Assembly (NCBI GenBank): GCA_030324005.1
Contig: JARDVH010000130.1
Coordinates: 34,631,341 to 34,695,340, forward strand
DNA: 64,000 bases
Direction of reading: 5' to 3'
Source of the DNA: Negaprion brevirostris
Taxonomy: Eukaryota
The notes beneath the pieces are model-generated. The model was not told where the DNA came from. It worked only from the letters and a program-made list of their open reading frames with translations, and ran no database searches. The translations under genes were made by a program, and so were the position numbers. The first letter of the stretch is position 1; every line of letters starts with the position of its first letter. Below are positions 4,490-38,210 of this stretch, piece by piece.

Positions 4490-4850
4490 GTTCAAATCCA
4501 GACTCCACAATTTAGGAAAGATGTCAAAATCTTCAGTGTGGAGATTTACTAGACTGGTACCAAGAATGGAAAACTTCAGTTGTGCAAGAGACTAGAGAAG
4601 TTCCGGTTGCTGTTCTTGAACACAGATGTTTAAGTGGCGATTTAAAAGGGCTGTTCAAAATCATGAAGGGTGTTTATTAAGTAAATAAGGAGAAACTATG
4701 CAATGAGAGAAGAAATGGTAACCAGATGTCCCAGGTATAAGGTTATTTGGCAAATGAGGATGAAAAAGTGTTTATGAAGTTATGATCTGCAATGCACTAA
4801 TCTGAAAGGGTGTGGAAACAAATACAATAACAGTCAAAAGGAAAGGTAGC
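4490..4850 (+). mobile_element. Decayed CR1 LINE 3' fragment
   Basis: RT C-terminal motifs (ORF 4383 ends WRFTRLVPRMENFS). Confidence 0.7.
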
Positions 4851-10356: not shown

Positions 10357-11836
10357 AGAAACCACAGGTAAACTGTCATAGGACTGCCAATTAGATTTTA
10401 ACAGCAAAAGGAATTTATTAAACATGAAAAGTTTGACTACGATACAATACTCAGTCACTCACTCCCATTTCACAAAACAGATTTTAAGGATAATGGGCTA
10501 CAAAATATAGCTGAAGCTGGAATGCTTTCAGTAAATACACGGCCCCGTTAAACAAAACAGGCCAACTAGGGTCAGACACACCCTCCTCTGAAAGCAAGTG
10601 GCAGATGCCATCCAATCAAATTTGTGGATTTCTTCTCCGATCCCCCCAGATGATTATCATACAAGTGTTTCCAAACTTCACTCTCAAAAAGACATGCCTT
10701 AGAGTCTTCTACTAAATGCCTTCTCTTAGCTGTTTTCAGAAAGGATCCACTGCCAGGATTCCCAACTCTCCTTTAGATATTCCTCTGTCTCAAATTGCCA
10801 CAGACATTCAAGCTTCGCACAATCTCTTAGGTATCTCGCCACCAATAGTGGCTGTACTTAAGGTCACCAACCTTAGGACTGCTTCAAATATCTGGCTTCT
10901 CTCTAGCCAATTTCATCAGATCTGCAATTTTCAGTTCTGTCTTTAACTTCAATGAACAGTACCTTGTTTAAATTCCAGTTCCTTTTTTCATTTGATTTCA
11001 ATCTTCCTGGAGCTTCTCTTTTCATTCTCTGGTCTCTAGAACCAACTGTGCTTTCATTTCTTGGACTTTTTTTTTGCCCATTATTCCATGGTTCTGCTTC
11101 TGGCTGGAGAGGTTTCCTCTCTAGTTATTAAGTTTCAACTGCCTTGGGTCCAGTTAAAACTAAACTCAAAAATCCTTCCACCTCATTGTTCTCCAGAGCA
11201 GTGTACTTGGTGGCTGTGGCGAGTACCTGATGTTTATTGGAGTCGCGTTCTGACTGCACTTCCTGTTTGCAGGGTTTTGAGTGTGTAGTTTACTTTCGTA
11301 CCGGAAGTTAGGCGAGGGGATAGTTGGGACTGGGGAGCGGGGGGTATAAAAAAAGGAGGTAGCGGCATACAGCGGGCAGCGTCGGGAGCAGGCAGCGGAG
11401 TGAGTGGGAGCTGAGTGAGAAGGGCTTTGGCTCGCTGGGCTTANNNNNNNNNNNNNNNNNNNNNNNNNNNNNNNNNNNNNNNNNNNNNNNNNNNNNNNNN
11501 NNNNNNNNNNNNNNNNNNNNNNNNNNNNNNNNNNNNNNNNNNNCAATATTCTCCCCTGAATCTGGCTAAGTTAAGGGTTCCACTTGCATACATGCAGGGC
11601 AGGGTAGGTGTAGGAGGATGCGGCGGCGCGGGCTCGTTGGGCCGAAAGGCCTGTTTCCTGTGCTGGGTTGTTCTTTGTTCTTTGTTCCTGAGTCAAAAAT
11701 GTCTCCTGGCTGCTAAACAAGTCTATTCTTTTTTATGACTTGTTTGCTTTTCACATCGCAAACTTTATAAGCACAATAGAGACACAGTTTAAAAGGAAAC
11801 CAAAACCCCCATACATGTAAACGTCTTTGTTTCACA
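10357..11836 (-). mobile_element. Probable solo LTR (left end in gap), interrupted by a young LINE
   Basis: Right end ...tttcaca (TGTGAAA on minus), minus-strand AATAAA near 10420, and LTR-like composition similar to the 6017-7703 elements. Confidence 0.45.
11200..11686 (+). mobile_element. 5' UTR and 3' tail of a probably young full-length CR1 LINE whose body is collapsed in a gap
   Basis: GC/CpG-rich leader before the gap. After it, the typical tail gggccgaaaggcctgtttcctgtgct followed by gttcttt repeats. Confidence 0.55.
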
Positions 11837-12023
11837 CAAATCTACAGTTTACCCTTTTTTACACAGAAACACTAAATTGAATCAATACCTTATATCTAGT
11901 ATTCCACAATACAAACACAGATTACTTAAAACCGCCTCTGCTTCCTGACACTTGACATTAAAGGGTGAGATGAATGGGATAAGTGCACTTAAAGAAAAAG
12001 AATGTATTAAATAATTAAATAAA

Positions 12024-14392
12024 CAAGCAGATGATATTGGAATTGCACAAAGTAGGTTAACCTGAAAATATGTAGAGTAGTGCCCAGGTTTGAACACAAG
12101 TTCTGCCACATATTCACCATTCCCCTTAAAGCAGCACAACACAATGGGAACTTCTCATTTAAGTTAATACACAGTCAGTGTTTACCTCTGGGATTTAGAA
12201 AGCAGGGATTTCAGCTTCTCTAAAGATGTGTCCGCAAATTCAGAGAAAGCAAATAACTTCTATGAAACGTACAGGGACACAGCAGGAGGTGAGGGTGCCT
12301 CTAATCTTCCCAGAGGGGTTAGAAAGAACAAGGGGCAGAACTTTTCTCTGTGTCTAAGTCTTGGTCCTGTCGAGTCAACTGAATCTCTGTGACACAATCT
12401 GATTATGTCTCATCTCTCTGGAAGAGAACTTCTGAAATTAGGTCAATAATGTTTTCCACCCAGGTTTTGGAGATGTGTTTTCTGCATTGGTTCACCCACA
12501 TCCCGTGCTGAAATGGGACTTGAATACAGTATAATTAATACAAAGAAAAGTACAGCACAGGAAAGGCCCTTTGGCCTTCTAAGCCCATGTGAGGCAGAGA
12601 GTGGGGGTCAACGGGTGCTATTCGGATTGGCGGTTGGTGACTAGTGGAGTGCCCCAGGGGTCGGTGCTGGGGCCTCAGCTATTTACCATNNNNNNNNNNN
12701 NNNNNNNNNNNNNNNNNNNNNNNNNNNNNNNNNNNNNNNNNNNNNNNNNNNNNNNNNNNNNNNNNNNNNNNNNNNNNNNNNNNNNNNNNNNNNNNNNNNN
12801 NNNNNNNNNNNNNNNNNNNNNNNNNNNNNNNNNNNNNNNNNNNNNNNNNNNNNNNNNNNNNNNNNNNNNNNNNNNNNNNNNNNNNNNNNNNNNNNNNNNN
12901 NNNNNNNNNNNNNNNNNNNNNNNNNNNNNNNNNNNNNNNNNNNNNNNNNNNNNNNNNNNNNNNNNNNNNNNNNNNNNNNNNNNNNNNNNNNNNNNNNNNN
13001 NNNNNNNNNNNNNNNNNNNNNNNNNNNNNNNNNNNNNNNNNNNNNNNNNNNNNNNNNNNNNNNNNNNNNNNNNNNNNNNNNNNNNNNNNNNNNNNNNNNN
13101 NNNNNNNNNNNNNNNNNNNNNNNNNNNNNNNNNNNNNNNNNNNNNNNNNNNNNNNNNNNNNNNNNNNNNNNNNNNNNNNNNNNNNNNNNNNNNNNNNNNN
13201 NNNNNNNNNNNNNNNNNNNNNNNNNNNNNNNNNNNNNNNNNNNNNNNNNNNNNNNNNNNNNNNNNNNNNNNNNCAGCCATGATCTTACTGAATGGCGGGG
13301 CAGGCTTGAGGGGCTACATGGCCTACTCCTGCTCCTATTTCTTATGTTCTTATGTTCTTATTACATCGATCATGATAGCCTAACGACAAAAAAAACTTCT
13401 GGTCCTACCCAGTCTGTATCCTTCTATTCTCTCCCTATTCATGCACCCATCCCAGTGCCTACAGTTAGTGACAGTGATGTAGGCAAGATGAGTAAAGGAT
13501 CACCACCAATGTGTAATCACATAAATGCTGCTCATTAAAAAATATTATCCGGAATAGACAATTAAATTAAACTTCTCTCGTCACCTTGCTTGACAAGATG
13601 GAGCAGAGCCACCAAACTGTAAAGGGTAGCTGAAAAAACAATATGATAACATAATGAGGATAGATTCAAAGACCTGTGCATCTCAGTGTACACGGGAGGT
13701 GGTCGTCCAGTAAAACCTCTTAATTCATGTTTTGTGATTAACATCTATTTAAATTGAAACCTTCTTGGACTTCTTCAGCAAAACTTCTAAAGTAAGTAAA
13801 CAAGGTGATGGGAGAACTACAATTTAATTGTCTTATAGAATTTTTTTAACAAGCAGCATTTATGTGGTTACGCATCAGTGGTGATTTTGTACGCTCATTT
13901 GCCCACCTCAGTGAAACTGCAACATTAACGATGATACTGAAGAAAATTCAAGTCCAGTTTTCTGCAGGGGGTGTGGCTGAACCACTGCAGAAAACACATC
14001 TCCAAAACCTAGTGGGCAACATTATTGACCTAATTGTGTCACAGAGGTTCAGTTAGCTAAGCAGGACCAAGATTTTTTTAGACTCAGATAAATTTTCCGC
14101 ATCTTGTTCTTTCTAACTACTCTGGGGGAGTAAGTTTTAAAAGTGAGAGGCACTTTCATCTCCTCCTGTCCTTGCGTTTCATAAGAATGATTTGTTTTCT
14201 CGGAATCCTTACAAAAACTGAAATCTCCACTTTTTAATTCCCAGGTGAACACTGACTATACTAACTCAAATGAAAAGCTCTTATTGCCTTGTGCTGTTTT
14301 AAGGTCAGGGAATAGTGAATATAGGCGGGACTCCTGTTCAAACCCAGGCACTACTACTCATCATTTCATGCAATTCCAACATCTTCTGCTTG
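12024..14392. repeat. Long diverged inverted repeat (left arm 12024-12532 plus 13475-13588, right arm 13801-14392)
   Basis: Colinear reverse-complement matches along the whole length, e.g. aattaggtcaataatgtt..ggttttggagatgtgttttctgca vs tgcagaaaacacatctccaaaacc..aacattattgacctaatt, and cacataaatgctgct vs agcagcatttatgtg. Confidence 0.92.
12540..13460. mobile_element. Minus-strand CR1 3' tail containing a younger plus-strand CR1 (12587-13358, mostly gap)
   Basis: RQRVGVNGCYSDWRLVTSGVPQGSVLGPQLFT, then the tail ggcctactcctgctcctatttcttatgttcttatgttctta. Flanked by two halves of a minus-strand tail. Confidence 0.85.
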
Positions 14393-15719
14393 CATTTCGA
14401 ACTTGTGTTTTGTTTTTAATCCTTACAGTTTTGCAGTGGGCTTTTCAGGATTGCAACAATGAATAGAAAAGTTTATTTCTCAAAGTTTGAAATAGGAGAA
14501 GGGGTGGGAAGGAAGTGTAAAGATTCTGTTAACCTAACAAAATTCCAACTGGGAAAAGCAGCAGATTCTTTTTGTTAAAGGAAGGGCACTGGGGGGCAAA
14601 TCTGTATTAATCTGTTGCTTTTATTCTATATACCTACCAGTCAGTCCTGCAGGGTGTCTGAGGCTGGGCACCCAGGCCAGGCCTGGCAACTGATCACTTT
14701 CCAGTCCTCACTTGCCCACCCTTTGCTGCCCTTCAGTTTGTGCAACTGAACAGCATAATCATAGTAAAAGTAAGTAAATATGACATTTATGGGCAATTAA
14801 GTTGGCTGAAATAAAGCAGGCATGCCAGAGAATTATTTGCCTCATCGAATTGTGCCATGTTATTGAAAAGGTTGGGGACCACGGGTGTAAAGAACCAAAC
14901 CTAACAAACAAAATGGAAATCTTTCGATCTGTTATTGGCATAAGACAATCGGATTCTGTAAGTAGAAAGAATTAACCCTGACCATCTGCATTCATCAGCA
15001 ACAAGGTCTCTGCATTGGACAGTGGTTTTAACATTCTACCTGAAAGAAGTCCTCCAACTTGTCTTTCCCTTGGTGCTGCATTGCAATTCACACTACATTA
15101 AATGTTCAAATACTAGAGTGAAATCCAAATTTCTGACTCAGAGACACAAATACTATCAACTGAACCAAGTGACAACAGCTGCATGAAACCAGGGCACGTA
15201 ACACTGCATGGCTCTATCTTGCCTTACAGGGCACAATTTATGCACATTCTCCATATTCCAAATAGCCATTGGTAATTAAAAATCTCAGCACATTGACTTA
15301 TTGAATACTCTATTGTGTTTCGGAATGTCTTAAACCATTTGTTCGCTTCATACGATCTTTGTTTTTCCATTGCACCTCTCTAATAGTCATGAACAGGCCA
15401 GTTACTGATAAGTAACCTAAGTTTAGCTATCAAGCTGAATTATACCTATAATTAATTCTGTATAAGCAGATCACAATTGGATTCTTATGGAAACATCAGA
15501 AACATGCCCCCAGCTCTCCCAATTGTTTGACAGAAAAAAACCATGTCTGGGTTACAATTTCATATGTATATATGGGGTCACCNNNNNNNNNNNNNNNNNN
15601 NNNNNNNNNNNNNNNNNNNNNNNNNNNNNNNNNNNNNNNNNNNNNNNNNNNNNNNNNNNNNNNNNNNNNNNNNNNNNNNNNNTATGTATATATGGGGTCA
15701 CCCATTCAAGACAGAGATG

Positions 15720-36631: not shown

Positions 36632-36704
36632 CCCAGAGATATCAGCAACACGGTGGATTGGCACTTCCTTCTTACTGTGGAGCCCTTTGGCATTCTTGAT
36701 GGCC
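36632..36704 (-). CDS. SND1: Internal coding exon of staphylococcal nuclease and tudor domain-containing protein 1 (equivalent to human exon 14)
   Basis: Minus strand: acceptor ttttttgtcatctcAG, 73-nt exon, donor GTAGGC. Reading after the first base gives [24 protein letters not shown], matching the recalled vertebrate SND1 peptide [24 protein letters not shown]. Length and phase (one base completes the upstream Arg codon, ends phase 0) fit the human exon as I recall it. Confidence 0.96.
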
Positions 36705-36939: not shown

Positions 36940-38210
36940 ACAACAAAATAGGGAGCAAGAACAAGAAGGAGCAAGCCCCTCGAGCCTGCTTTGCCATTCA
37001 ATACCACCAGCACTCAGCTGACTGTGGCCTCAACTCCATATTTCTGCCCACCCCAATATCTTTCCACTCCCTCATTAGTCAAGAATCTTATCAATCTCTG
37101 CCACAAAGATAGTCAACATCCTTGCCACCACCCACTGGGGAAGAGAGTTGCAAAGACGCTCGACCTTCTGAGAAAAAAGTTTTCATCTCATTCTTAAATG
37201 GAAGACCACTTATTTTTAAACTGTGTTCCCTAGCTCCAAATTTTTTCACAAGGAGAAACATCCTGTCAGCATCCACCTCATCAAAACCCCTCAGGGCTTG
37301 CATATTTCAATAAAATCCACCTCTCCATTCTTCTAAACTCCACAATATTTCCATATTAAAGTAAATTTCCCCATCCCTTAAACCAGAATCATAGAAATCA
37401 GAGAACCTGTACAGTGCAGGAAAAGGCCATATGGCCCATCGAATCTGCACTGACCACAATCCCACCCAGGCGCTACCCCCCATCCACCCGCTAATGTGAA
37501 TGTGATGTTTATGAGCAATCTATTCAGCTGAAAAGTATCTATGCAGTGGAATTGAAATGAATGAAACTTGTCATATTACTCAATAAGTTGGGAACCACTG
37601 CCCTATACAACTGTAGCTAAACATGCTCATTTCTATATTCCATTCCTGTTGCTATAAATGACAAAANNNNNNNNNNCATTTTGTGACTCATGTACCAGGA
37701 CTCCCAGATTCCTCTGTATCAGAATTCTGTAGTGTCCGTCCGTTTAAATACGATGCTGCTGTTCTATTCTTCCTGTTAAAGTTAACAAGTTCACATTTTC
37801 TGTACTTTATTCTCCATCTCCCAAATGTTTTACCCACTCACTGTTTCCTTATCCTTTTGCAGCCTCTTATGTTTTCCTCAAAACTTATTTTTCTTTGTGT
37901 CATTGGCAGAGTTAGCGATCATCATCCATGTCACTGATTAAATTGCAAATCATTGAGATTTCAGCACTGGTCCATGTGGCCCTTCACCCATCTCATCCTG
38001 CCAACCCAAAAATGACCACTTTTTGCCTGCTAGCTAAGCAATTCCCTACCCATGCTAAAATGTTACACCATGAGCTCATATTTTACATAGTAACGTATGA
38101 TGTGGCATTTTGTTAAATGCCTTCTGAAAAACTTAGCATATCACGTCTACAGGTTCACCTTTATAAACATTGCTTGTTACTTTCTCAAAGAACTCTAATT
38201 GGTCAAACAC
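36940..38210 (-). mobile_element. Decayed CR1 (3' tail and RT) with a V-SINE tail at ~37385-37490
   Basis: LRGFDEVDADRMFLLV..REHSLKI motif. FQKAFNKMPH readable near 38100-38130. Confidence 0.75.

Follow-up and report, generated by a model that had tools for sequence, protein, structure and literature searches.

The inverted repeat between positions 12024 and 14392 of the window, by which we mean the whole 64,000-nucleotide stretch of Negaprion brevirostris DNA analysed here, very probably belongs to a decayed, dispersed and non-coding copy of a hAT-type transposon, which has its arms in common with other copies and is likely a neutral fossil in an intron of SND1. The assignment to the non-autonomous hAT elements rests on features of the sequence, namely the ends, the target duplication and the dispersion of the family. 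Among the options of the earlier note was a fold-back DNA transposon that predates the LINE insertions interrupting it, and the results argue for such an element, with its arms located internally.

The interrupted inverted repeat and its host intron

Self-BLAST of the window yielded two arm alignments, confirming the inverted repeat described in the earlier note. The outer arm pair joins positions 12024-12525 to 14392-13946 (67% over 524 columns, 99 of them gap columns; E 3e-51), and the inner pair joins 13472-13591 to 13913-13798 (76% over 122 columns, E 5e-16). Counted over ungapped columns, identity amounts to 81.6% in each part (390/478 in the outer and 93/114 in the inner part). The outer-arm alignment behind this figure contains 118 gap columns. 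The spacer, previously put at about 210 bp, measures 206 bp. The limit set at 14392 needs correcting, since homology to other copies runs on to position 14884; a left-side partner of the right inner arm survives only for 13798-14392.

The features of the copy are listed in Table 1. In the coordinates of the family consensus, which was built from 99 de-duplicated fragments with the window's copy left out (7 own loci dropped), the window reads as arm 864 to 354 reversed, LINE insertions, 334 to 210 reversed, spacer, 210 to 1078, a deletion of ~290 bp, and 1378 to 1656. The deleted ~290 bp are found in other copies and are absent at ~14585. In addition, no remnant of end B or of the outer left arm was detected in the window or in the 200 kb to its left. 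The window's copy has thus lost its left end (end B) and the remainder of the left arm, together with the ~290 bp.

Table 1. Features of the transposon copy and its surroundings in the window
Feature	Position	Strand	Evidence or remark
Left inverted arm, outer remnant	12024..12535	-	Consensus 354-864; 81% to consensus built without the window's copy
Nested later high-copy LINE-type insertions	12536..13471	.	Window matches, RT-like frame, high depth, joints
Left inverted arm, inner part	13472..13591	-	Consensus 210-334
Central spacer, 206 bp	13592..13797	+	Three further matches in the genome, each in an arm-bearing copy
Right inverted arm, inner part	13798..14581	+	18 other loci at 66-79%; colinear with L002/L054
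Right arm, outer part	14592..14747	+	Adjoins either end in other copies
End A of hAT element, ~135 bp, common to sister subfamilies	14748..14884	-	nhmmer E 3e-23
Terminal inverted repeat within end A	14866-14884	-	Pattern match, 2 mismatches
Putative 8-bp target site GTGTAAAG, NTCTAGAN-like	14885..14892	+	Flank consensus of 30 ends; left partner lost
SND1 exon upstream of host intron (context only)	36632..36703	-	PDB 3bdl match

A different medium-copy repeat at 11740-11951 abuts the truncated left arm and matches L048, L049 and L051-L053 at 73-89%. Matches to 11900-11955 were rejected as part of the arm family, as they belong to a different neighbouring repeat.

The interruption of the left arm is 936 bp long and of very high copy number, with a contig depth of more than 1e6 in bins over its two readable parts. 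It partly reads N, and joints linking 12563 to 13413 were seen in contigs. Moreover, it harbours an RT-like frame and matches other parts of the window by self-BLAST. Probably, a minus-strand 3' LINE fragment is split here by a plus-strand fragment. Later LINE-type insertions into the left arm, as previously proposed, are thus borne out; the family name CR1 is a label that we assume for them. In the contigs of two close relatives both arms are covered and the sequence runs into the LINE edges, indicating that the insertions of both the element and the LINEs predate the split of these relatives.

The host gene, located by exon prediction combined with a PDB match, is SND1 on the minus strand, as had been stated: the exon within the window matches PDB 3bdl, the human SND1 structure, in 23 of 24 residues (E 6e-9). 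Searching the genome with the Pfam SNase domain gave no match; the exons are short. The intron holding the element spans ~51.6 kb, with the next SND1 exon presumably ~15 kb to the left of the window on L104, where it was recognised by its motifs. On L121, a 632-codon open frame starting at 4494 on the + strand lies antisense within SND1 and is a candidate for the nested LRRC4 gene.

Copies, ends and target sites of the family

The claim that the arms have no further copy within the window holds, yet they are repeated elsewhere in the genome. The right arm yielded 23 genomic matches, 3 at the locus of the window and 20 in 18 other loci, and the left arm and the extension to 14884 revealed loci beyond this set. 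The three other matches of the spacer each fall within an arm-bearing locus; the counts for right arm and spacer are lower bounds. The copies are dispersed at unrelated genomic sites, as in a non-autonomous hAT family. No match to Rfam was obtained at E values up to 1.

The homology stops at 14884 with a hAT terminus of the Charlie/SPIN type, followed by a NTCTAGAN-like target site. The reverse complement of the terminus begins like CAGTGGTTCCCAACCT with 2 mismatches over 19 bases, for which 0.04 occurrences are expected by chance. A search with the 26-nt terminus gave 58 genomic matches at no more than one mismatch and none for the reversed control. Of 14 ends identified through arm homology only one passes this filter, so that there may be some 800 such ends in the genome, a rough extrapolation that includes sister subfamilies. 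The 8 bases outside 30 ends follow the consensus NTCTAGAG; position 4 is T in 26/30 and position 5 is A in 22/30.

End A (~130 bp) is present once per element, and end B has just a TIR of ~16 bp in common with it. A reading of end A as a 130-bp TIR was therefore dropped. At both ends the TIRs start with CAG, in accordance with the YARNG motif, whereby end B is known from other copies, the left end of the window's copy being missing. To assess target duplications, we used 14 A/B end pairs, reduced from 15 by dropping the second, longer pairing of L069 as redundant. Their flanks match at 64 of 112 positions, compared with 45.0 +/- 4.4 in shuffles, and none of 20000 shuffles reached 64 matches. 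A separate pair, that of L091, matches at 7 of 8 flank positions. Thus, an 8-bp NTCTAGAN-like target duplication, now degraded, belongs to the family, as shown by copies other than that in the window. With regard to the fold-back transposon with very long TIRs suggested in the earlier note, the DNA transposon stands; its long arms, however, are located internally, while hAT-type sequences of only ~16 bp serve as TIRs.

Several further occurrences of this hAT group were noted. A second end A with ~110 bp of homology lies at 37494-37600 of the window and probably represents a sister subfamily. Among L123-L152, at least four unrelated interiors are found behind the same end A, and some elements, 0.67-1.4 kb long, are complete and have end B as well. 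This suggests a single hAT chassis carrying varied cargo. One sister subfamily (L125, L130, L139, L145, L151) contains promoter-like motifs in its interior, 100-340 bp inside end A, which we would label CCAAT-like and X-box-like; this interior could be the promoter end of an autonomous element or a captured promoter.

Architecture and origin of the palindrome

The consensus comprises the spacer (1-209) and the arm (210 to ~1521), followed by end A. Three other loci (L045, L091 and L056) can be aligned with the window across its arm-spacer-arm junctions. In two further loci, L143 and L013, one and the same segment of the outer arm is found on either side, adjoining both ends, and the arm stops at the same base ahead of end-A or end-B sequence. 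Most copies keep mainly one arm, and no full-length copy was seen. From the two-armed junctions, the presence of the outer arm at both ends and the common arm boundary we infer a non-coding master of ~3.2 kb, pieced together from fragments, which would consist of end B (~220 bp), an arm of ~1.3 kb, a spacer of ~0.2 kb, the inverted arm and end A (~135 bp).

The same five loci indicate that long inverted arms are intrinsic to the family, as in fold-back elements. In contrast to these, the arms are not terminal and are bounded on the outside by two different subterminal ends, A and B. The family thus works like a fold-back, yet it is not a classical FB or Galileo element. With respect to the ends, the spacer points one way in the window and L017 and the opposite way in L091 and L054, a count of two copies against two in which end B of L017 is weak (E 0.29). 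The two orientations fit recombination between the arms.

No remnant of a transposase was detected in the element loci with 26 domain-bearing queries. The genome contains 79 hAT-domain matches, and among the top 30 of these loci, at ~3 kb each, no A or B end was found at E <0.03. Given these two results, mobilisation in trans appears likely: a Charlie/SPIN-type hAT transposase would have moved the element via the 16-bp TIRs, thereby making 8-bp target duplications. The long palindrome likely favoured lopsided internal deletions, so that most copies retain a large part of one arm but only a small part of the second, and recombination between the arms likely flipped the spacer. After its insertion, the window's copy would have lost its left end and ~290 bp, taken up the nested LINE insertions and drifted.

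Frames with hAT dimerisation domains and 646-742 codons occur at L153, L156, L157, L163 and G000:C73:66984269 and are possibly domesticated transposase genes.

The origin of the arms could differ from that of the remaining element. It is conceivable, albeit in our view unlikely, that a separate long-TIR element comprising arm, spacer and arm was inserted in a minimal hAT chassis and then carried along, as Angel was in Tol2 (bioRxiv 10.64898/2026.01.12.699174). Sister subfamilies have no more than ~55-65 bp of end B and ~130 bp of end A in common, and their interiors are unrelated. Moreover, the arms end at the same base on both sides, and L074 departs from the arm at that boundary base into other sequence. 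However, of the 11 distinct junctions listed all save L074, and possibly L089, run into end A or B or, in L033, into inner arm; the boundary shows neither a recognised terminal motif nor, apart from a possible 2 bp, a clear target duplication on the inside. Such a nested origin would alter where the arms came from and leave the status of the copy as a fossil unchanged.

A local inverted duplication, the alternative raised in the earlier note, is very improbable, whether it arose by copying a section of a linear transposon at this locus or the arms stem from two independent head-to-head insertions, even though most other copies show mainly one arm and the window's two arms resemble each other a little more than they resemble the remaining copies. 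This reading is largely refuted by L045, L091 and L056, where the same spacer edges are joined to both arms; since these loci carry the same junctions as the window, the palindrome was inherited from the transposon and not formed locally. In addition, other loci have the spacer ahead of or behind the arm in either orientation, and each arm retains consensus segments that are missing from the other.

Other palindromic sequences were encountered beside the family. At L083, another inverted repeat of ~630 bp (17-643 / 826-1463; 86%, ~180-bp spacer) adjoins a family fragment and has an arm unlike that of the family. Palindromes of 150-200 bp at L054 (7584-7756), L141 (2200-2398) and L089 (2142-2291) are probably other miniature inverted-repeat elements.

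An internally palindromic hAT element can be compared with several known systems. The TIR 16-mers of the family match the termini of lizard hAT-N3 and SPIN elements as given in Table 1 of PMC3014272, and the NTCTAGAN target consensus appears for human hATs in PMC2836564. Like lizard hAT-N3_AC, SPIN_NA1_AC and hAT-HT3N in PMC3014272, the shark family combines the same 16-bp termini with 8-bp TA-centred duplications, a non-coding interior and many end-sharing subfamilies. The hAT-N3/SPIN elements listed there measure 135-1485 bp with TIRs of 12-57 bp, whereas the shark family would reach ~3.2 kb, most of which is an internal palindrome of ~1.3 kb with a two-way spacer.

The nearest structural precedent is provided by the internal repeats of Tol2, likewise a hAT with short TIRs, an 8-bp target duplication and separate internal inverted repeats. 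In the 2026 preprint these repeats are Angel-derived, 302/303 bp long, TTAA-flanked and located in an autonomous element, and they are called unique among hATs (bioRxiv 10.64898/2026.01.12.699174). Unlike those of Tol2, the shark arms take up most of a non-coding element and have no TTAA boundary; they are also ~4 times longer. Drosophila Galileo resembles the family in its very long, variable inverted arms, its transposase-less copies and the incorporation of internal sequence into the repeats, but belongs to the P superfamily and has terminal long repeats (PMC4168063), whereas the shark arms are enclosed by two distinct subterminal ends. The shark arms showed no internal tandem repeats. The literature yielded no description matching such a shark family; it may already stand in Repbase or Dfam, which lay outside the search. 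The element of the window is a structurally unusual transposon fossil.

Pairing between the arms and the SND1 transcript

The arms could in principle pair in the SND1 transcript. On the SND1 strand the inner hairpin is predicted to fold with -152.6 kcal/mol (z -9.5), and the longest perfect helix between the arms measures 25 bp. The inner 120-bp hairpin would fold in the pre-mRNA and may be edited incidentally, like other inverted repeats of the intron, in which 23 inverted alignments were found, 21 of them from other repeats and one of these scoring higher. Inverted pairs of intronic Alu elements are edited by ADAR and provide an example of repeat-derived intramolecular dsRNA in pre-mRNA. Unlike such pairs, the shark copy is a single element with built-in arms that are ~19% diverged and contain large indels.

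No bias towards changes that preserve pairing, which the earlier note had suggested looking for, was observed. Counted on the SND1 strand, the mismatch types G-U and A-C occur at similar frequencies, at 31:31 in the tally of the arm alignment or 42:35 among 120 mismatches. Non-consensus states shared by the arms number 8 on 440 well-supported columns (1.8 per 100) and are within the range of the control (mean 0.95, maximum 2.67 per 100 columns in 42 comparisons). A first figure of 22/28 shared states was discarded because it partly reflected consensus ambiguity and alignment, the 8 being those that remain on strong columns. What speaks against a neutral reading is that the arms differ from each other by 18.7% and from other copies by 22.8% and 22.7%. 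Their mutual divergence is the lower one in 21 of 21 comparisons, which are not independent, and 4.4% of 113 copy-copy pairs are as close. The tree is star-like for the family and groups the window's arms with a bootstrap of only 44%. A sub-master, or conversion between the arms at an early stage, accounts for this similarity more simply; compensatory change would look alike.

Both arms are present in the orthologous intron of two close relatives. These differ by 2.0-4.0% over the arm-containing contigs and by 1.4-2.7% over the pieces reaching the right flank, and in one of them (organism C) positions 12102-12134 of the left arm are absent, a 33-bp indel. Thus, the arms are not conserved above their flank, a comparison of two close relatives' contigs that has low power for weak conservation.

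We give hardly any credence to an exapted fossil whose arms pair in the SND1 pre-mRNA and are hyper-edited by ADAR, with Tudor-SN cleaving its own transcript as feedback. The predicted hairpin, the persistence of both arms in the two relatives and the slight excess similarity of the arms, which would then represent compensatory change, speak for it, and the action of Tudor-SN on hyper-edited dsRNA, invoked before, is in print: in PMC5900569, Tudor-SN degrades such dsRNA, although the worm enzyme is structure-specific rather than inosine-specific. Against it stand the lack of a G-U bias and of a significant excess of shared states, the gap columns of the outer arms, the 936-bp insertion and the shortness of the longest helix, the absence of conservation above the flank, the indel between the relatives, and the many other inverted pairs in the same intron. 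A functional dsRNA and an autoregulation of SND1 are therefore unsupported, as both the copy number, with the arms repeated at at least 18 other loci, and the neutral divergence went against them; the third sign named in the earlier note, loss from orthologous introns, was not observed in the two relatives.

Taken together, the element is probably an ordinary fossil and not one that controls SND1, and its meaning for the biology of this gene is probably none. For the biology of transposons the family represents a modest addition, namely a hAT whose ends are of Charlie/SPIN type and which was apparently mobile with internal inverted arms of ~1.3 kb and a two-way spacer in place. Lopsided deletion hides the palindromic master of this family, and as a consequence a surviving two-armed copy looks locus-specific.
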